In this document: one piece after another, positions 2,451 through 59,889 of the stretch | Layout: each line of letters starts with the position of its first letter | Position numbering within the stretch: position 1 is the stretch's first letter | NCBI GenBank assembly: GCA_034413595.1 | Contig: DAOUMC010000025.1 | Coordinates: forward strand, 999 to 64,998 | DNA length: 64,000 nucleotides | Direction of reading: 5' to 3' | Source of the DNA: Dehalococcoidales bacterium | Lineage (GTDB): Bacteria > Chloroflexota > Dehalococcoidia > Dehalococcoidales > JAUWZL01 | The notes under the pieces: model-generated | What the model was told of the DNA's origin: nothing | Database searches by the model: none | The model's input: the letters and a program-made list of their open reading frames with translations, nothing else | Made by a program: the position numbers and the translations under genes

Positions 2451-3153
2451 AGCTGTTCATAAGTCTGGCTTTCCTTCGCGAGGCCAGCAAATAACCACCG
2501 GCCGCTCCCGATAGAACTACTGCCATCCCCACCATGAGCAGGACGCAGAACATGGTGACGTCGTACCAGAAGCCCTCGGGGAAGAGCATTATGAGGTAGT
2601 CTTTGGTCGGGTCAAGCAGCCAGAAGTTGTTGGCAAAGCTGATAAGGTGGAGCTGTAGAAAGAAGCCGTCAAAGTCTACCAGCGCCCAGAGTCCCAGGAA
2701 GAGTATCAGGCCAAGAGTGACGCCGCCGCCGGTAATCACCGCCCGAGCCAGCCGGCGGCGTTCTTTTTTCCTAAAGAACAGCTCAGTCACGGCATAGACC
2801 AGGACGAAAATGCCTGTCCCCAGCAGCACCCGGTAGTCCAGCTGAATCAGCCCCTTGAAGTCCTTTAGATGGATTATCTCGCGTTCGTTGAAAAGGGCAA
2901 AGGGCTTGCCATCCTTGATCACCGTAAGGTTAATGAACTCTTCACCCGAGTTAAAGTAGCTAATCAGCCCGCTAGCGGCTTTGTGCAGTTCGGAGCTGGC
3001 CAGACCGGTGGTCTGGCTGACACCGTACTTCTCAAAGCCGTACTCATAGAACCACTGGCTGTTCACCGCCCAGGCGATGCTGGCGGTGAAAATCATCACC
3101 GGCAGGCACAAAACAAACAGCCACCGGACGGCAATATCGACAAATCTCATCAT
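2428..3153 (-). CDS. TIGR01906/DUF1461 integral membrane protein (Lit, lipoprotein intramolecular transacylase-like)
   Basis: Four TM segments; EIIHLKD and LHLISFANNFWLLDPTKDYLIMLFPEGFW motifs. Confidence 0.8.
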   Translation of the reverse strand: MMRFVDIAVRWLFVLCLPVMIFTASIAWAVNSQWFYEYGFEKYGVSQTTGLASSELHKAASGLISYFNSGEEFINLTVIKDGKPFALFNEREIIHLKDFKGLIQLDYRVLLGTGIFVLVYAVTELFFRKKERRRLARAVITGGGVTLGLILFLGLWALVDFDGFFLQLHLISFANNFWLLDPTKDYLIMLFPEGFWYDVTMFCVLLMVGMAVVLSGAAGGYLLASRRKARLMNSSTAPEER

Positions 3154-3200
3154 TTTAATTTTACACCTCGGGGATTAAAAAGCATAATGTTGTATATTCC

Positions 3201-3257
3201 TTCTCCCTTTTAAAAGCAGGAGAAAACAGTGGAGGACTTCACCCCTCTCGGGCACCC
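3201..3257. repeat. Degenerate copy of the purine/pyrimidine-rich double-hairpin REP-like element
   Basis: TTCTCC-cttttaaaag-ca-GGAGAA then GGAGG-acttca-CCCCTCTCGGGCACCC; resembles copies at 25268, 30131 and 47724. Confidence 0.4.
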
Positions 3258-3388
3258 GGTGATAAAGCGGTTTGCCCCAGAAATTCTTAATCAATTTTTT
3301 CTGGCTCTTTATCGCTTAGCCTTAAAAATAGAGGCTCAATAAGTCCGTCTGTGCTATAATTGTGGCGACTCTCTGCCGGTGAGGTACC

Positions 3389-50952: not shown

Positions 50953-52395
50953 TTAAGTCATGTCTTTGTGGCTCGGGCGCCTGATAAGGTGCAGGACGGT
51001 GATTAGCAGAGCCAGGTCTGTGGCATATATGCCCCCCACCAGCCACCAGTTGGTCGTCCCAGGGCTGGTCATTCCGGTTGGTGCTGCTGTCGGTGTTGAT
51101 GTCAGGCTGGGGGTCGGAGCCGGGATGGCCTCCCGCTTGACCACGAAAGAGCCCGTAAGACCGTTCAGGTTAAGCAGGTAGAAATCGGCCGTCTCCGGGG
51201 ACAGGTTGAAGGTGACCAGACTGCTGGCACCGCCCTCCAGGGTGATGCTTCTGGTCTCCTCTGCATCGTTGTTGAGCATAAGGGCCAGTTCGTAGCTGCC
51301 GGGAAGGTCTCCGGTGTTCTCCACCAGGGCGGTTACGGTTACCGTGTCTCCCACCCTGGCCTCGGTCGGGGATACGGAGAGCCCGGAGATGGTAAAGGCC
51401 GGGGGTGCCGTGTGGGCTATAACGGCAAAGGTGGTCAGGTGATGCACCGGGGCGGTTATGGTATCGGCCGTCGGGTCGACAACGGAGAGCTCAAGCTCAT
51501 GCCATTGGCTGTCCACCTCATCCCAGGAGGCGATAGCCAGTTTCTCCTGGCTTACTCCTTCCGGTATTTGTGTCTCGTCATAGGTCAGGGTAAGAACCGC
51601 CGGCGGGTCAAAGGTAGCACCATCGGGGTCAATGTCGTAGACAGGGCCGATGATGCCGCAGTTTTCGGGTGGCGCCTGAGGCTCTTTAATATCAACTATC
51701 CTTATCTCTTGCAGCGGGGAGCCGTATTCGTCCAGAGCTTTTGTTCCCTCATAAAGTGTCAGGGTGCACCTGGAGTCTTCAGAGGCGGCAGTAATTTCCT
51801 GGGTGATTGTCCCCTGCCAGTCAATCTTGCCGGCAATAGCGGTGGTTCCGGTGGGGATGGGTTGGGCAGTGACCTGCCTGTAGGTCACCTGGCCCAGTGA
51901 CTGGTACTGAGGCAAATAAGAGGTAACGGTGAACCACAGCACGGCTTTGACCCTGGCCTCGACCAGCTCACCGGAAACGTTGTAGCTGCCGGGGTTGCTG
52001 CCGGTGGGAAATTCCAGGGCCACCGTCTGGGATGCCTGGGCGACCTCTCCCGCTTTATTGGGAAAGGGGCTTATTGACAGGGTGTAGTCAGAACTCAGCA
52101 CTGCCTTGGCGCCGGTGGCGGTGTTTTCGGCTGTGACACGGCCGGTGACGCGAGCTTCGCTTACCGATAGCGGCAGGTCTTTGACGCAGCTTGCCGTGCC
52201 GGTGATGGTGGCGTAGAAAATTTCGCCCTCCTGGACGTCAGTGCTGCTGAACTGCACCGAGTAGTCTATCTTGAAATAATCGTCCACGCTCAGGGCGGTT
52301 GCTGGTGCCGGTCTTATGGAGATTAGACACAGCGCCAGCGCCAGAGCCATCGCTAGGCGGCATAACACGCCTGGCCCGAATGTTTTACCTATCAT
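50953..52395 (-). CDS. Secreted, membrane-anchored surface protein (Ig-like, ZU5-like and CARDB-like domains)
   Basis: Signal peptide; GPVYDI.PDGATFDPP..L.L.Y, W.......HLTTFA; CARDB-like V.NTG...GSY; PT linker; NWWLVGG TM. Confidence 0.75.
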   Translation of the reverse strand: MIGKTFGPGVLCRLAMALALALCLISIRPAPATALSVDDYFKIDYSVQFSSTDVQEGEIFYATITGTASCVKDLPLSVSEARVTGRVTAENTATGAKAVLSSDYTLSISPFPNKAGEVAQASQTVALEFPTGSNPGSYNVSGELVEARVKAVLWFTVTSYLPQYQSLGQVTYRQVTAQPIPTGTTAIAGKIDWQGTITQEITAASEDSRCTLTLYEGTKALDEYGSPLQEIRIVDIKEPQAPPENCGIIGPVYDIDPDGATFDPPAVLTLTYDETQIPEGVSQEKLAIASWDEVDSQWHELELSVVDPTADTITAPVHHLTTFAVIAHTAPPAFTISGLSVSPTEARVGDTVTVTALVENTGDLPGSYELALMLNNDAEETRSITLEGGASSLVTFNLSPETADFYLLNLNGLTGSFVVKREAIPAPTPSLTSTPTAAPTGMTSPGTTNWWLVGGIYATDLALLITVLHLIRRPSHKDMT

Positions 52396-52475
52396 CTCTT
52401 GCCTGCTGTCCCCGGGATATGCTCGTCGGTGACTTTACCGGGCGCCGAGGTCTGGTGTCAAACAGGAACAGTTAG

Positions 52476-54701
52476 CTATTTCTTGTCCGGTGAGCTCTTG
52501 GTTATGGTAAAGCCGGCACCGTGGGGCGTTTCCTGATAGTCAATAACCATCCCCTCCAGCGATGGCACCAGTTCCGGGCTGATGACCAGAATCTTCATCC
52601 CGCCGCTTTCCACCACCTGGTCCTCTTTCTTAGCTCTATCCAGAGCCATCTTTAGCTGGTTCGGCTTATCAGGAGAACGGGTGATGCGGAAGCTCGCATC
52701 GGGGTCTTGAGTTTTGGCCCGGATTCCCTCTCTTAATTTTTCGGCGGCCAGCGCCGTTACGGTCAGCACGCCGGCAGCCAGTCTCTGCCCCTCCACAGGA
52801 CGGACCTGCTTGGCTTCGGCTCCCACAGCCCACGCCTCCCTGGCTTCGGCGGCGGTCATTCTGGCCTTCTCTTCGGCTTCCGAAACTTTTTTGTATTCAG
52901 CCTCCTGCCTGGCCCGGCCGCTGACTTCCCTTCTTACGCTCTCCTCGGCGGTTCTGGCCTCCTGCCTGGCCCTGGCCAGACTCTCGGTGACGTCCTGGCT
53001 GGGTTTGGCTCTCAGGGGTGCTGGCACTAAAGCCTTTATCCTATCTCTTCTGGCCAACAGAACGATGCCCAGGGTCAGCAGGACTGAGCCGGCGGCGACA
53101 CCTAAAATGAGCCACCAGTTAATACCCTGGTGTGGCGGTGGTGGCGGAGCGGCTTCTTCCTTTACCTCAAACGAGAAACTCAGCCCGCCGACCGACACCA
53201 AGTAAGTGCCGGCGGCGCTCTTGGTGGTGGTGAAGTCTACCGTTTCACTATCACCGGCGGTCAGGTTCAGTTCTTCTGTCGACTCAGCCGTCCCGTTCAC
53301 GGTAAAGGTTGCCTGATAGCTGCCGCCAAGCTCGCCGGTGTTGGTGACCGTGAAACCGACGGTCACCTGGTCTCCGGTGTCAACCTTGCTCAGGGATATA
53401 TCCCAGCCGCTGGTAACGAAAGTGGCCGGTGTCGCCAGTGTGGTGAAGGTGAATTCGGCGGATACCGCCAGGTTGCCGGCGCCGTCCCGGGACATAACCT
53501 TGTAGTGGTATAGCGTATTCGGGTTGAGGTCGGTCAGGTGGACGAGGTGCTCGGTAACCATGGTGGCGTCCAGCGGCGTCAGCTGGCTGGGGCTGGCCCA
53601 GTACTCCACCTGGCTGTCGCCGGACTCGTCCGTCGTCCAGGCGATGTCGGCGCTGGTCCGGGTGACATTGGAGCTTGATGTCTCTGAGATGGTCGGGGGT
53701 GTGTTGTCTGGTATCAGGCTGAAGTTGGCGGTGACCGTCTTATCTGCGTCCATGGTGACGGTGGTTGTAGCCGAACTGGGGTCGGCCACGTCTCCCGTCC
53801 AGCCGTCAAACTGCCAGCCGCTGGCCGGTGTGGCCGTGATATCAACTACGGTGCCCTCGGGATAGCTGTGCGTGCCCGCCGCCGGGTCGATGGTGCCGTT
53901 GCCGTTGACCGCCATGGTCAGGACGAACTGCCCCTGGAGTTTGAAGTTGGCGGTGACTGTTTTATCTGCGTCCATGGTGACGGTAGTTGTAGCCGAGCTG
54001 AGGTCGGCCACGTCACCTTCCCAGTGGTCGAATATCCATCCCGAACTGGCGGTAGCACTGATGTTGACCTGTGTTCCCCCATCGTAGTCATGAGGGCCTA
54101 CTGCCGGGTCGATGGTGCCGTTGCCATTTACCGCCATAGTCAGGGTGCAGGTGAAGATAGCCGTGATTGTCTTGTCTGCGTCCATGGTTACCGTGGTGTC
54201 CGCCGAGCTGGGGTCGGCCACGTCACCAACCCATTGTACAAACTGGTAGCCCGGGTCGTGTGTGGCACTGATGGGGACGACTGTTCCTATATCATAGGTG
54301 CCGGCACCGGAAGCGATGCCGTTGCCAAGTGTATTTATAATAAGCGTATATTGGGTGGGTGGTGGTGAGGTTACTGATAGATTAAGCTCGGTAGCCCCCC
54401 CCTCTTGAAAGGGATATGAACTAGCCTGTATTCCATTTACATAAAATATAATCGTATCTCCCGCGTTGCCGGGAACATCAAAGTTATAACTGCCACCGCT
54501 TGTACTGGTGCTCGCTACCGGTGTTCCATTTATTTCTGCAGTTACACTGGTACCATCAGGGGCAGGTGAGCTATCTATAGTGACAGTGCCCCAAAAGGCA
54601 TGCGGCATGGTTGGTGGTGGTTGAGCCATAACAATACTTGATGACAGCAGGTAGGAGACTAGTAGTATTACCAGAATGATGGTTCCTAAAAGCCTTTTCA
54701 C
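52476..54701 (-). CDS. Adhesin-like membrane protein (3 InlB B-type repeats, FN3, CARDB-like, TM) with a cytoplasmic HesB/IscA-like C-terminal domain
   Basis: PHAFWGTVT N-domain; three W.GDVAD.SS..TTVTMDADKT repeats; WTTDESGDSQVEY FN3; TM; LTVT..AAEKL...DQVVESGGMKILV...IDY....G.GF.I tail. Confidence 0.8.
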   Translation of the reverse strand: MKRLLGTIILVILLVSYLLSSSIVMAQPPPTMPHAFWGTVTIDSSPAPDGTSVTAEINGTPVASTSTSGGSYNFDVPGNAGDTIIFYVNGIQASSYPFQEGGATELNLSVTSPPPTQYTLIINTLGNGIASGAGTYDIGTVVPISATHDPGYQFVQWVGDVADPSSADTTVTMDADKTITAIFTCTLTMAVNGNGTIDPAVGPHDYDGGTQVNISATASSGWIFDHWEGDVADLSSATTTVTMDADKTVTANFKLQGQFVLTMAVNGNGTIDPAAGTHSYPEGTVVDITATPASGWQFDGWTGDVADPSSATTTVTMDADKTVTANFSLIPDNTPPTISETSSSNVTRTSADIAWTTDESGDSQVEYWASPSQLTPLDATMVTEHLVHLTDLNPNTLYHYKVMSRDGAGNLAVSAEFTFTTLATPATFVTSGWDISLSKVDTGDQVTVGFTVTNTGELGGSYQATFTVNGTAESTEELNLTAGDSETVDFTTTKSAAGTYLVSVGGLSFSFEVKEEAAPPPPPHQGINWWLILGVAAGSVLLTLGIVLLARRDRIKALVPAPLRAKPSQDVTESLARARQEARTAEESVRREVSGRARQEAEYKKVSEAEEKARMTAAEAREAWAVGAEAKQVRPVEGQRLAAGVLTVTALAAEKLREGIRAKTQDPDASFRITRSPDKPNQLKMALDRAKKEDQVVESGGMKILVISPELVPSLEGMVIDYQETPHGAGFTITKSSPDKK

Positions 54702-54733
54702 TTCGCCTCCTCAATCGCTCATAAATTATTATA

Positions 54734-56728
54734 TCAGTTGCTGTCTATAGTCAATGTGTTTGGGTTGGTCATCTCTATCCAGTAGGCCTTGCCCTCCGTC
54801 ATTTCAGTGAGGGTCGGCGGCGGGCCACCAGGAATGTAACGAGACCAAGTATCGGTAGCACCGTCGTAATACCACACTATCTCAACATCACCAATTATTC
54901 CAGCCAGCACATCCCCGATGGCGGACGAGGTGGGAGTCTCCGGTAGCGAGATGAGGTTCCAGCCGGCTACCAGATTTATATCGTAAGGGAGCGAAGGTTC
55001 TACCCCGTCAATGATGAGTTTACAGGGATTGGAAACGTGTATCCAGTAGCCTTTGCCCTCTGTCATATTGTTTAAGGTCGGCGGCGGGCCACCAGGAATG
55101 TAACGAGACCAAGTATCGGTAGCACCGTCGTAATACCACACTATGTCAACATTACCAATTACGTCAGCCAGCACATCGCCTATGGTGGTTGAGGCTGGTG
55201 TGCGCGGCAGGCCGACGAAGTTCCAGCCCGCAACTAGGTCGACGCCCGCTTCGTAGGTGGCATATCCCAGGGGCAGGGTGTTGCCCTGCAGTAAGTCCAC
55301 AACATTCTGGGCGGTAAGTGCGTCGATGCCCTGTGTATACCACATCTCGTAGACGCCGTTGTTGTAGATGACGCAGGGGGTGCCGACGCCGCTCCACGGG
55401 CTGCCGCTGGCACCGACCAGGGCGGTGGGGTTCTGGATATCCCAGGCCACGCCGTCACCTGAGGTGGCGTGGCCGATTACTGTACCGGTGTCGGCCAGAA
55501 GGGTCTTGACGTTGCCCATCCGGTTGTCTACGAGGTCAGTGAAGTCAGTCAGGAAATCGTTCAGGTTCACCACCGGGCTCAGGTCACCCCACAGGTTAAG
55601 CAAATCGGGCGCCAGCGCCCGTATCTCATCGGCAAGGTTCCCGAAGGTGGTCAGGGTCAGGTCTGTCTGGCCCCGGGTGTACCATATCTCATAGCTTGAG
55701 CCGTTCTTGATAACGCAGGGGAAGCCGACGCTGTCCCACGCCCCGCTACCGCTGGGCAGACCCGTGGCCGGTGTTTCTGCCCAGCCTATGCCATCGCTGG
55801 AGGTGGCATAGGCGATGCCGCTGCTGGTGCTGTCCAGGATATTCCACAGCTCGTCGGAGCCGAAGGTGCCAATGTTCGCCAGATAGTTATCAAGGTCGGT
55901 TCCGGTGAGGCTGGTACTGGCCTTGGTGTACCACATCTTGTAGGTGCCGCCATCGTTGATAACGCAGGGCGTGGCCACGCTGTCCCAGAGGTTGCCGCTC
56001 TGGTCTAGGCCTGTGGTGGGAGTTTCTGCCGCCCAGTTGATGCCGTCGGCGGACGTGGTGTAGCCGATGGTCGTGGCCGTGCTGTCAGTCAGGTTCAGTA
56101 TAGCGGCTTTTCTCGTCGCCTGGTCTGTGCTGCCCAGGTCAGTCAGGATAGAGTCAAACTCGGGCCGGGTCAGACTGGTCTTGGTGTGCGTGTACCACAT
56201 CTTGTAGGTGCCACCATCGTTGATAACGCAGGGGAAGCCGACGCTGTCCCAGCCGGCGCCACCACCCGCCAGCACTTGGGAATTGACCACCGTCCAGTCC
56301 GTGCCGTTGTTTGAAGTGGCGTAGCCGATAACGGTGCTGATATTACTCAGGAAGCCCCACAGGGCGTCGCGGGCATTGGCATCCAGAAGGGATATGTCAT
56401 TGAGCAGTTGCTCCAGGTTCTGGTCGGCTATATCGTTCACTATGTTATCGTTGAGTATGTCCCTTAGATAGCCGGCGATCTGGCTGATATAGAGCCCGGT
56501 CTTGCCGTGGGTGTACCACATCTGGTAGTCGTTGGGGCCGTTCTTTACCACCCAGGCATCCATGACATAAAGTTCGTTGTTGGCACCATTGAGAAGCGAC
56601 AGAGGACTCAGGTATTTTGTCCAGGGCACCGCTGCCTGAACCAGTGATACCAGGCTGACCATGAGAACTATGGTTAGGGCTAAGATTAACGCTGCTGTCC
56701 CGACGGCCCGGTTTTTACTCCGGTTCAT
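54734..56728 (-). CDS. Secreted five-bladed beta-propeller protein with helical inserts and two C-terminal AGWN repeats
   Basis: Signal peptide; five P.V....Y.MWYT...IGYATS.DG..W blades; two LVAGWN...WYYDGATDTWSRYIPGGPPPTL..MTEGK.YWI repeats. Start ATG 56728 chosen. Confidence 0.8.
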   Translation of the reverse strand: MNRSKNRAVGTAALILALTIVLMVSLVSLVQAAVPWTKYLSPLSLLNGANNELYVMDAWVVKNGPNDYQMWYTHGKTGLYISQIAGYLRDILNDNIVNDIADQNLEQLLNDISLLDANARDALWGFLSNISTVIGYATSNNGTDWTVVNSQVLAGGGAGWDSVGFPCVINDGGTYKMWYTHTKTSLTRPEFDSILTDLGSTDQATRKAAILNLTDSTATTIGYTTSADGINWAAETPTTGLDQSGNLWDSVATPCVINDGGTYKMWYTKASTSLTGTDLDNYLANIGTFGSDELWNILDSTSSGIAYATSSDGIGWAETPATGLPSGSGAWDSVGFPCVIKNGSSYEIWYTRGQTDLTLTTFGNLADEIRALAPDLLNLWGDLSPVVNLNDFLTDFTDLVDNRMGNVKTLLADTGTVIGHATSGDGVAWDIQNPTALVGASGSPWSGVGTPCVIYNNGVYEMWYTQGIDALTAQNVVDLLQGNTLPLGYATYEAGVDLVAGWNFVGLPRTPASTTIGDVLADVIGNVDIVWYYDGATDTWSRYIPGGPPPTLNNMTEGKGYWIHVSNPCKLIIDGVEPSLPYDINLVAGWNLISLPETPTSSAIGDVLAGIIGDVEIVWYYDGATDTWSRYIPGGPPPTLTEMTEGKAYWIEMTNPNTLTIDSN
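54812..55144. repeat. Identical 69-bp direct repeat pair (54812-54880 and 55076-55144)
   Basis: ggtcggcggcgggccacc...ataccacactat occurs twice, 264 bp apart. Confidence 0.9.
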
Positions 56729-57020
56729 AATATTCCCCAATCGTAATTGGGCAATACTGACCTTTCAGTGCCCCATCCAATATCTGGAGACAATAGTATT
56801 ATTTGATGCCTGCAATTGCCCAAAGGCTAGCATAACTTCTCTTACCCGTCAAGCCCTGCCGGTGAAGAGAGGCCAGAAACTTTAGTAACCGTCTGTCTTT
56901 TGGGGGATTAAAGGTGGCAAGCGGGGTCAGTTCGGGTTTCCTTTTCCTGTGTCAGTGGAGGGTGAGATGCTATGAACGTTAGCCTGTGAAGCCAAGTCCA
57001 GCCGATGAAAGCCGAGTTAC

Positions 57021-58247
57021 TTATGCCTGCTTTAGTCTAACCTGGATTTCCTTGCCCTTGCCCACCGCTTCCTCAATGAGTGGTACCTGTTTTAATGCCT
57101 GTATTAACGGGGTAGGCTTCTCCGTGGAAACAACGACCTGGGCGCCTTCGCTCTCCTTGCTAGAACCACCAATCATTATCAGGCGCAGGTCATGGAGCTG
57201 ACGTAGGCCTTCTTCCAGTTCTTTTATATCGCTGGAATCTACCGGTGGCATTATCACCAGTCTTGTGATTCCGGTAAATAAAGCGGCTGTACCCTTAACC
57301 TCAACCTTCTCTGCCTTTTCCTTGGCTTCCTGGACAGCCTCTTCCTCCGCCTCCCTGGCCTTCTCGGCTTCTGGTGCTTGCCTTGCCTCTTCTTCAGCCT
57401 TTTTAATTTCCCTCTCTGCCTTCTCTTTGGCTGCCCTATCGGCCTCTATCTTCGCCTTCTCTTCGGTCTCCTTGGCTTTCTTGGCCTCTAGTGACTGCTG
57501 GATGGCCCTTTGCTCTGCTTCCCGAGCCTCTCTGGCAGCTTTCTCCGCAGCGATGACCCTCTTCTCCGCCTCTTCGGCTGCTTCCTTGGCTTCTTTCTTG
57601 GCCTTAGCCTCTGCTTCCTTAACCCTTTTGACTTCTAGTGCCTCCCTGTTAGCCTTTTCCTTGGCTTCCCGAATGGCTTTTGCGGCGGTCTCTCTGGCTT
57701 CCCTGATGGCCCTGCCTGCGGTTTCTTCAGCCTTCCAAACAGCTTTCTCAGCGGCTTGTATCGTTTCGCGGGCCGCCCTGTCTGTGGCCTTCTTTGCGGT
57801 CTTAGTTTTTTCCAGCTTCTCTCTGGCTTCAGCGGCCGCCTGTCTGGCTTGTTTCGCTGCCGCCTTGGCTTCCTGGACAGCCTCTTCCGCCGCTTCCCTG
57901 ACCTTCTCGGCCTCTGGTGCCTCTTCTTGTGCTTCTCCGGCTTCCGGGACACCTTTTTCGGCGGCTTCTTTAGCATCCTGGATGGCCTTCTTCTCAGCCT
58001 TTATAGTTTCGCGGGCCGCCCTGTCTGTGGCCTTCTTTGCGGTCTTATCTTTTTCCAGCTTCTCTCTGGCTTCAGCGGCCGCCTGTCTGGCTTGTTTCGC
58101 TGCCGCTCTGGCCTCAAGTATAGCTCTTCGCGCCGCTTCCCTGGCTTCCTTAATGGCTTTTTCGGCGGCTTCTTTAGCATCCTGGATGGCCTTCTTCCGG
58201 GCCATCATGATTTGGTCCGTCCTAGTGGTGCCTTTTTGCTTAGCCAT
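57021..58247 (-). CDS. Ala/Glu/Lys-rich long coiled-coil protein with a small globular C-terminal domain
   Basis: About 320 aa of AEK heptads; C-terminal LVIMPPVD...IGGS...PTPLIQAL domain. Confidence 0.75.
   Translation of the reverse strand: MAKQKGTTRTDQIMMARKKAIQDAKEAAEKAIKEAREAARRAILEARAAAKQARQAAAEAREKLEKDKTAKKATDRAARETIKAEKKAIQDAKEAAEKGVPEAGEAQEEAPEAEKVREAAEEAVQEAKAAAKQARQAAAEAREKLEKTKTAKKATDRAARETIQAAEKAVWKAEETAGRAIREARETAAKAIREAKEKANREALEVKRVKEAEAKAKKEAKEAAEEAEKRVIAAEKAAREAREAEQRAIQQSLEAKKAKETEEKAKIEADRAAKEKAEREIKKAEEEARQAPEAEKAREAEEEAVQEAKEKAEKVEVKGTAALFTGITRLVIMPPVDSSDIKELEEGLRQLHDLRLIMIGGSSKESEGAQVVVSTEKPTPLIQALKQVPLIEEAVGKGKEIQVRLKQA
57763..58106. repeat. About 101-bp near-identical direct repeats (57763-57863 and 58006-58106)
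   Basis: Encodes AAKQARQAAAEAREKLEK(D/T)KTAKKATDRAARETI twice, 243 bp apart. Confidence 0.85.
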
Positions 58248-58514
58248 TTATCGGTTCCTCCAATTACAGCTGGGAGTCAAACCTAATGTTCTCTTTAACG
58301 ACTTCGGATATTCGATTATACCCGGCTCTGCTTATTATACCAGATTGCCAAATACCGAATTACCAGATTAACCAGGCCGTCTTAGTATAAACACAGTTGG
58401 GGATAGTGTCAATCATTAGCTGCATTTTTTCTTAGAGCCGAATCAGGTGATTGCGGTTGGGGCAATTTAACGAGTATTTAGTCAATGTAAGGAGGAAATT
58501 TGTGACCGGACTGG

Positions 58515-59354
58515 CTACTTATTGATAGCCTCAAGAGCATTCTCATAGCCGGTCAGCGATACCTCAATGGCGTGCTCTAGAACTGGTTTGACCTCGTCAG
58601 GTACCGTCTCCAGCGCTTGTTGAAGAGCCTGCTGGTTGCTGGCAGCGTGTTGCCCCAAGAACCAGCCAAGGGTGTCCTGCGAGCCGTCCAGCCGGGGGGG
58701 CTCCGGGCTTTCCTGTGTCTCCGTCTTGGTGACGGCTGGTGTTGATGACAATGCCCCAAATGCCACGTTTTCCTGGTAAGATGTAGTTATGGCCAAGTCG
58801 GCCATCGCTATAAGCTGGTGCTCCAGTTGCTGGGTGGCTGCCTCTGCCAGTTCGGACTTGCCTTTGCGGGCAAGATAGATTATCTCGGCCACCCGTCTAT
58901 CGGAGAGTTTGGCATAGAGCTCTGCCTTGTCCAGGGGTGAGGAGGTCAGGCTTAGTTGCAGCTGCTCTACGGCCAGTTTTACCGGGTACAAGGGGCCATC
59001 GGGCATGCTGTTACTGGCTGCGGCCACCATACCGCTGCCGGCAAGCAACAAGATGAGAACCGTAGCTACCGCCGTCGTCCAGCGGAGTCGCCAGAAAGGT
59101 ACGGGGTGGCTTTTCTTGGCTGCCGTCTCCTGGACGGCGCTGCAGAATTCATACCTGGCTTTGGCCCTGAATCCGGCATCAGGCTCAATATTGATTACTG
59201 CTTTGGCTGAGGCCGCGGTCTGGAGCAGGGGCTTCAGAGTTTCCGCCAGTTCCGGATGACGGGCCAGGCACTGATCTACGGTCTCGCCCTTAACCAGCAG
59301 CTTTTCCAGGCACTCGTTTAGGACATCGTCAAACTGCTTATCTGTCTTTTTCAT
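58515..59354 (-). CDS. DUF5667 domain protein, putative anti-sigma factor
   Basis: N-terminal ECLE.L..G...CLA.HPE; TM; AASNSMPDGPLYPVKLAVEQLQL...RR..E motif; overlaps the sigma stop codon. Confidence 0.78.
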   Translation of the reverse strand: MKKTDKQFDDVLNECLEKLLVKGETVDQCLARHPELAETLKPLLQTAASAKAVINIEPDAGFRAKARYEFCSAVQETAAKKSHPVPFWRLRWTTAVATVLILLLAGSGMVAAASNSMPDGPLYPVKLAVEQLQLSLTSSPLDKAELYAKLSDRRVAEIIYLARKGKSELAEAATQQLEHQLIAMADLAITTSYQENVAFGALSSTPAVTKTETQESPEPPRLDGSQDTLGWFLGQHAASNQQALQQALETVPDEVKPVLEHAIEVSLTGYENALEAINK

Positions 59355-59889
59355 GGTAATCAACCGTCAACAATTTTCGCAGGGCCACGATAGCGCTGTG
59401 CTGCAGGGCTTTTACCGCCGTCTCGCTCTTACCCATGATTTTGGCTACCTGAGCAATGGGTAGTTCACTGGCAAAGCGGAGGGAGATAACCTCCTGCTGA
59501 GCTGGCGTTAGCTGCCTGGTAGCCAGCATCAGTTGTTCCACGTCCAGTTTATGCTCGGCTATCTTCTCAGGGTTACTATCGGAAACAGTTATTCGCTCGT
59601 CCAGAGGCATAGAAGGCTGCCTCGTCTTTCTCCTCAGGTAATCGACCACCTGGTTGTGGGCGATGCGATACAGCCAGGCAGAAAAGGGAATGTCCCTCCA
59701 CTGGTAGGAGGAAATGGACCGGAGTGCCTTGAGAAAGACCTGCTGGGTTACGTCCTCAGCCTCCATCTGATTCCCTATCCTGAGGGCAACATAGCGATAG
59801 ATCCTGTCGAAGTGCCTATCATATAGCTGGGCAAAAGCCTCTTGGTCAAACTGACGGGCTCGCTGGATAAGGCCCTGCTCGTCTTGCAC
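59338..59889 (-). CDS. ECF-type sigma-70 factor
   Basis: AFAQLYDRH..IYRY, AEDVTQQVFLKA, FSAWLYRIAHN, LTPAQQEVI.LRF, K..TAVKALQH. Confidence 0.93.
   Translation of the reverse strand: MQDEQGLIQRARQFDQEAFAQLYDRHFDRIYRYVALRIGNQMEAEDVTQQVFLKALRSISSYQWRDIPFSAWLYRIAHNQVVDYLRRKTRQPSMPLDERITVSDSNPEKIAEHKLDVEQLMLATRQLTPAQQEVISLRFASELPIAQVAKIMGKSETAVKALQHSAIVALRKLLTVDYHEKDR

Follow-up and report, generated by a model that had tools for sequence, protein, structure and literature searches.

A cysteine-free HesB/IscA-like domain as the predicted cytoplasmic tail of a surface protein in Dehalococcoidales

An IscA fold that has no cysteines and serves a role outside Fe-S chemistry has already been described. 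DsrR from Allochromatium vinosum is such an IscA-like protein (Grimm, Cort and Dahl 2010, as cited in PMC11406059), and PdhI/YneR from Bacillus subtilis, a non-carrier with a similar fold, binds and inhibits the E1 component of pyruvate dehydrogenase (PMC10090944). Here we compare these systems with the product of a 741-codon open reading frame (ORF) located on the minus strand at positions 52476-54701 of a 64,000-nucleotide stretch of contig DAOUMC010000025.1 from a Dehalococcoidales bacterium; the whole stretch is called the window below. An earlier note had read this ORF as an adhesin-like ectodomain joined through a transmembrane (TM) helix to a HesB/IscA-like domain of about 95 residues without Fe-S-binding cysteines, and had named no described example. 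The ectodomain-TM-HesB-like architecture was not found in the literature we searched (queries on HesB in Dehalococcoidia, on HesB-like proteins with cold shock and on IscA-like proteins with transmembrane segments gave nothing relevant) and appears undescribed, although, as DsrR shows, the cysteine-free fold is not new. We consider the C-terminal domain, hereafter the tail, to be probably a membrane-tethered protein-binding module, and not an Fe-S carrier, in a type I surface protein of Dehalococcoidales.

The tail (aa 646-737, 52491-52766, minus strand) was assigned by profiles, by an AlphaFold2 (AF2) model and by Foldseek. When the last 104 residues were scanned alone, Fe-S_biosyn (PF01521) matched residues 646-734 with 24.3 bits (cut-off 26.3, E 3.8e-5). 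The NCBIfam model IscA_HesB_Se (NF038090) scored 36.5 bits (cut-off 85, E 4.7e-9), and TIGR00049 scored 31.1 bits (cut-off 58.8, E 2e-7). A profile of 91 members, the tail and 90 stand-alone relatives, retrieved Aq_1857 (E 7.9e-8), HI1723 (1.3e-5) and DsrR (1e-4) from the PDB. The AF2 model of the tail, with a pLDDT (predicted local distance difference test) of 84.7, was matched by Foldseek to IscA, SufA, HI1723, Aq_1857 and DsrR with probability 1.00 and TM-scores (template modelling scores) of 0.57-0.66. The structures found at this probability include 1r94, 1s98, 2d2a, 1x0g, 2apn and 1nwb.

The ligands of the A-type carriers (IscA, SufA, ErpA, HesB) are missing from this fold. The tail contains no Cys, and an Asp is aligned to the cysteine of the carriers' GGCSG loop. 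The chain ends 6 residues past the last aligned position, whereas the aligned Aq_1857 continues for 22. In A-type carriers, the CxC motif lies in this C-terminal stretch beyond the last aligned position. In an alignment of 24 fused and 95 stand-alone relatives, we observed no conserved Cys or His column; the most-shared Cys column was occupied in at most 3 of the fused and 10 of the stand-alone sequences, and the position of the first carrier Cys varied within the fused clade. With the carriers, the tail shares the T/A of helix 1, the Arg of strand 2, the Asp of the GD pair, a Gly and the Asp of IDY. Unlike them, it lacks all three Cys ligands and the CxC segment, scores below every curated cut-off and is membrane-tethered. 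Both the profiles and the models confirm that the tail would adopt the IscA/SufA/HesB fold without the canonical Fe-S ligands, as the earlier note had proposed. Since the defining ligands and the curated score cut-offs both fail, we do not count it as a member of the A-type carrier family. We must also note that its genome (G000, 1.51 Mb, 96% complete) holds no PF01521 match besides the cysteine-free tail, and therefore seems to be without any A-type Fe-S carrier.

DsrR (PDB 2k4z) is the closest described parallel in structure. Like the tail, it has the IscA fold without the ligands, and the loop of the first Cys is replaced by a Pro/Asp/Gly-rich loop; the two were matched by Foldseek with probability 1.00 and a TM-score of 0.66, whereas the single-sequence match was weak (E 0.027). 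DsrR is a soluble, stand-alone protein from the dsr operon of sulfur oxidisers, in contrast to the tail, which is the predicted cytoplasmic end of a surface protein. In the absence of dsr context, and with the family profile scoring Aq_1857 and HI1723 above DsrR, the tail is not a DsrR orthologue. PdhI/YneR (model 9a4q_B) is also an IscA-fold match and acts by protein binding instead of Fe-S carrying; it is, however, soluble, and the structural match is weak (E 0.013, TM-score 0.51). In overall layout, the 741-aa protein resembles the RsgI-type anti-sigma factors of Clostridium thermocellum, in which a single TM helix connects a binding-type domain outside the cell to a small protein-binding domain in the cytoplasm. 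The orientation is opposite, with the N-terminus outside in the 741-aa protein, the tail is unrelated to known anti-sigma domains, and the linker is not conserved. In ectodomain composition and C-terminal TM anchor, it is like the Chloroflexota surface proteins with InlB B-repeats, FN3 and CARDB domains. Ordinary proteins of this type, such as the 480-aa neighbour described below, end a few residues past the TM helix, whereas the fused family adds 150-260 residues with a folded end.

The reading frame is uninterrupted, as had been claimed, and starts with GTG at 54701, with a GGAGG Shine-Dalgarno sequence 5 nt upstream forming a strong ribosome-binding site; the stop codon occupies 52476-52478. 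The protein consists of a signal peptide, a beta-sandwich, three InlB B-repeats, an FN3 domain, a CARDB-like domain, a TM helix, a linker and the C-terminal domain of ~92 aa. The full-length AF2 model (17 orthologues, mean pLDDT 79) showed the signal helix, confident beta domains at 34-513, the TM helix at 530-550, a low-confidence helix at 570-629 and a compact alpha/beta domain at 646-735 (pLDDT 80-86). Hydropathy analysis gave two hydrophobic helices, 8-26 and 531-549. Both methods thus agree with the signal peptide and the TM helix named in the earlier note. The start codon and signal peptide (aa 1-26) span 54624-54701, where AF2 predicted a helix at 2-19. The signal peptide, repeats above the Pfam cut-off and a C-terminal TM helix are all present, as in a type I surface protein.

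Most ectodomain parts proposed from the letters were recovered by Pfam. The N-terminal domain with the 'PHAFWG' motif (aa 30-112, 54366-54614) was modelled as a confident beta-sandwich (strands 34-110, pLDDT ~86) and is 49-53% identical among orthologues, but no Pfam family matched it in our scan. The three InlB B-type repeats (Flg_new_2, PF18998, E 7e-41, three stretches) cover aa 113-333 (53703-54365). Orthologues have one to five of them, and the DNA copies are only 71-74% identical to each other, so that repeat collapse during assembly is unlikely. The FN3/Pur_ac_phosph_N-like domain (aa 337-421, 53439-53693; PF16656 37.1 bits, PF00041 25.2 bits) is the ectodomain part best conserved among orthologues. 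The CARDB-like domain (aa 428-513, 53163-53420) consists of beta strands in the AF2 model, and its PF07705 match (residues 438-504) reached 22.3 bits, 0.4 bits under the cut-off of 22.7, which several orthologues exceed.

A Pro-rich stalk and the single TM helix (INWWLILGV...LLA, aa 530-550), followed by RRDR, are encoded at 53052-53162. The signal peptide and the RRDR motif after the helix, read by the positive-inside rule, would place the last 190 residues in the cytoplasm. The linker (aa 551-645, 52767-53051) was described in the earlier note as a charged coiled coil. It is an ER/K/A-rich stretch with an AF2 helix at 570-629 (pLDDT 50-60), and this helical, charged character stands. A conserved coiled coil was rejected: even in the best heptad register, just 35% of the a/d positions are hydrophobic, and among orthologues the linker is 52-162 aa long and may be acidic, Pro-rich or ER/K-rich. 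A linker so poorly conserved and so variable in length makes conformational signalling through the membrane unlikely.

The fusion of such an ectodomain to the tail is not confined to one assembly. Across the order, surveyed in 301 genomes with a profile from alignment A1, the fused architecture occurs in seven genomes of five families, our own included. In the other six (G003, G007, G050, G059, G137 and G210, from four other families), frames of 469-953 aa end in the HesB-like domain. A copy that is 79% identical and ends in the same order of TM helix, linker and domain lies on an independent metagenome contig from JGI (sample 3300049473). A word-based homologue search with the 104-aa domain gave four proteins and a single-sequence locus scan gave three loci; an exhaustive profile search of 1.84 billion cluster representatives (50%-identity clusters) gave about 25 representatives in which a TM helix precedes a HesB-like domain at the C-terminus. 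When ten long representatives were scanned with Pfam, B-repeats were found in all ten, and most also had FN3 and CARDB domains.

The ratio of non-synonymous to synonymous substitutions (dN/dS) against the JGI copy was lowest in the tail (0.078), compared with 0.20 in the linker and 0.26 in the ectodomain. Among orthologues, the tail is 34-86% identical, equal to the best part of the ectodomain, and the linker 8-36%, with the exception of the close relative P0003 (74%). In the domain tree, the TM-fused domains formed one clade of 36 rows with a Shimodaira-Hasegawa-like approximate likelihood ratio (SH-aLRT) support of 86, which fits a single fusion event. The sequence comparisons support a genuine and conserved fusion whose tail is under strong purifying selection, and so exclude the artefact that the earlier note had named as a concern. 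According to a rival explanation, the assembly is chimeric or a stop codon was lost recently, and the tail is outside the functional protein. This explanation could point to the public gene call for the locus (P0002), which is only 437 aa long (52476-53789) with an internal GTG start, but this call still runs from the TM helix through the linker to the tail in a single frame, and with the recurrence and the dN/dS described above the sequences already refute this rival. Given the signal peptide of the 741-aa frame and the strong Shine-Dalgarno sequence at its start (54701), the public call is itself probably truncated.

The tail belongs to a wider cysteine-free family, with a score of 125.5 bits (E 7.8e-37) against the A1 profile. 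The A1 consensus, LTVT..A..KL...R...S....L...LD...GDQVV...G.K.LL......LEG.V.DY.ET..G.GF, has no Cys. At E <= 1e-3, the family comprises 335 cluster representatives, most of them stand-alone proteins of 90-105 aa, and 71 of 98 stand-alone members are without any Cys. Members were found in 95 of the 301 genomes of the order, and strong matches were almost confined to the class Dehalococcoidia; the sampled genomes of genus g10 gave no family match at the thresholds used. We also observed a HesB-like domain 53% identical to the window tail on a contig binned as 'Candidatus Bathyarchaeia archaeon' (L018 218-493), which reflects either horizontal transfer or a binning error. Weaker HesB-like matches (E ~1e-8) with one in-frame TGA, e.g. 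G017:C2:16017-16283, G033:C8:3445-3711 and G211:C95:5838-6110, are probably the selenocysteine form of HesB/IscA (IscA_HesB_Se), separate from the cysteine-free family.

Four kinds of context recur around the members of this family or in single fusions. The first is a cold-shock-domain (CSD) gene, found directly upstream and on the same strand in nine of 15 stand-alone loci from several Dehalococcoidales families. The gap in this CSD-HesB-like unit is 10-45 nt (L034 3034-3576; also L006, L032, L033, L035-L038 and L041). One contig carries a CSD-HesB-like fusion (P0032), and the CSD-linked stand-alone protein of genome G127 (L034 3286-3576, with its CSD neighbour at 3034-3273) is 59% identical to the window tail. 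The second is a fusion in which the HesB-like domain comes first and a thioredoxin with a WCGPC/WCAPC motif forms the C-terminal part; it is present in at least three independent sources (L020 3478-4092, minus strand; L021 3384-4031, minus strand; P0150). The third, in three genomes, is a tandem array of four to six stand-alone HesB-like genes that follows the gene of a sigma-70-family protein with regions 2, 3 and 4 (L024 3445-7377; L025 2340-4602; L026 2958-4631); in L024 and L026, the sigma gene itself comes after a gene for a LuxR-type response regulator. Two further proteins, of 89 aa and of 112 aa ('MFWKKK...KKIEG.LW'), belong to the array blocks, and neither scored above any Pfam cut-off. 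The fourth is the 228-aa protein P0007 (ENA contig of 2.9 kb), in which a receiver domain is fused to a HesB-like domain 60% identical to the window tail. This domain nests within the TM-fused clade, in a single contig only.

Taken with the conserved, ligand-free fusion, these contexts speak for a fold that has been re-used for interaction or signalling. This agrees in part with the earlier note, which had proposed a transmembrane receptor with a reused Fe-S-carrier fold: the re-use is favoured, and the variable linker argues against conformational signalling across the membrane. In the membrane-tethered module that we favour, the ectodomain of beta-sandwich, B-repeats, FN3 and CARDB would lie outside, with one TM helix crossing the membrane, and the flexible, poorly conserved linker would tether the IscA-fold tail to the inner membrane face. 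There, as a protein-binding module comparable to DsrR and PdhI/YneR, the tail may dock a cytoplasmic partner under the surface complex or bind copies of itself. Any coupling to outside events would need clustering or proteolysis. The best candidate class of partners would be CSD proteins, because a CSD gene immediately precedes the genes of the closest stand-alone relatives (59% identity), and in one case a CSD is fused to the HesB-like domain. A more specific version, in which the cysteine-free HesB-like domain is a dedicated binder of CSD RNA chaperones and is here tethered under a surface complex, is a long shot in our estimate. If it were true, CSD proteins would be sequestered or released at the membrane, and the surface state (adhesion, clustering, envelope damage) would feed into post-transcriptional control; such a CSD-tethering signalling route would be without described parallel.

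Several points weigh against a protein-binding module. The scores of the tail against the curated IscA/HesB models are all under their cut-offs, and the topology is predicted from the chain. The CSD gene of the same genome (C24:39552-39740) is not beside the 741-aa locus, and its product shares only 44% identity with the CSD of the operon type. The fusions with a receiver domain and with a CSD are each known from one contig. Moreover, the carriers are homo-oligomeric in crystals, so that plain self-association of the tail would fit equally well.

The genes on both sides of the 741-aa gene encode further exported proteins. Downstream, a 480-aa surface protein (50953-52395, minus strand) has a CARDB domain, a C-terminal NWW-TM anchor and a short tail, and upstream, a 668-aa secreted propeller-like protein (54734-56740, minus strand) has a weak GH130 match. 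The claim that the neighbouring surface proteins end right after their TM helix is thus correct for the 480-aa protein, whereas the 668-aa protein has no C-terminal TM helix. No terminator-like site was found between the 741-aa gene and either of these genes. The trio is conserved: in both G003 and G007, a 668-aa homologue (46-47% identical) lies directly upstream and a 480-aa homologue directly downstream of the fused gene, which likewise has another gene after it in the JGI contig. In the window, surface-protein, sigma/anti-sigma, LemA and HtpX genes surround the 741-aa gene, with an ECF (extracytoplasmic function) sigma/anti-sigma pair (58515-59889) upstream on the same strand and a 408-aa coiled-coil protein encoded at 57021-58247, and dsr genes are absent nearby. 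G007, from a different family, largely keeps the neighbourhood 50953-59889 (L016 1-11744), with anti-sigma, AEK coiled-coil, propeller, fused and 480-aa genes; HtpX, LemA and zinc-ribbon genes adjoin with the block inverted, while G003 keeps the surface-protein trio only. The conservation of HtpX and LemA genes as neighbours in G007 is only a hint of proteolytic coupling.

The trio bears on the rival that survives best, a purely structural role, in which dimers or tetramers of the tail, like those of A-type carriers, would join the surface proteins into a lattice or cluster under the membrane, with no other partner or regulation. The conserved trio of surface-protein genes would suit it, and so would the match of the fold to the dimeric and tetrameric crystal structures of IscA/SufA (2d2a, 1x0g, 1s98). 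In six of the seven genomes with a fused gene, no second family match was found at E <= 1e-5, and so a paralogous partner would be unneeded. A mutual exclusion of fused and stand-alone copies was also considered and proved uninformative; about 70% of the order's genomes are without a second match anyway. However, the nearest stand-alone relatives, soluble and ~96 aa long, occur in CSD operons or fused to thioredoxin, which points to hetero-partners, and the 480-aa neighbour with its paralogous anchor does without any tail. We regard a purely structural role as possible, though unlikely.

It is much less probable that the tail still acts as an iron or Fe-S carrier or sensor through Asp, Glu and His ligands; in that role it would couple the surface protein to cellular metal status. 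The best profile matches are Fe-S carrier families, the tail is the only PF01521-like product of the genome, and some family members are fused to thioredoxin, a hint of redox chemistry. Against this, the tail has no Cys, the family has no conserved Cys or His column, the first-Cys column is variable in the fused clade, and the chain stops short of the stretch present in Aq_1857.

The NWW-TM-basic segment might alternatively be a sorting signal like LPXTG or PGF-CTERM, cleaved by a dedicated protease so that the HesB-like part would stay behind as its own membrane-tethered fragment. The motif (N/S)WW(L/V)I that opens the TM helix, and the basic residues after it, are indeed common to the 480-aa neighbour and the orthologues. 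Genome-wide, however, the strict pattern of motif, TM helix and basic residues occurred in the 741-aa gene only, with a looser NWWLV in the 480-aa neighbour, and we rejected a genome-wide sorting signal of this kind. Because the anchor modules of these two genes are paralogous, the shared NWW motif reflects paralogy and not a general signal, and cleavage of this sort is very improbable.

After DsrR and PdhI, the membrane-tethered tail and its relatives would represent a further and much larger group of fold re-use, with hundreds of Dehalococcoidia sequence clusters and fusions of its own. Public annotation names one orthologue (MFC2022585.1, NCBI) 'fibronectin type III domain-containing protein' and others 'IscA'. 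When automatic annotation says 'IscA' or misses the domain, the Fe-S assembly capacity of reduced genomes can be mis-scored. The tethered form, the cold-shock operon and the thioredoxin fusions are functional clues in a clade that is environmentally important and hard to culture.

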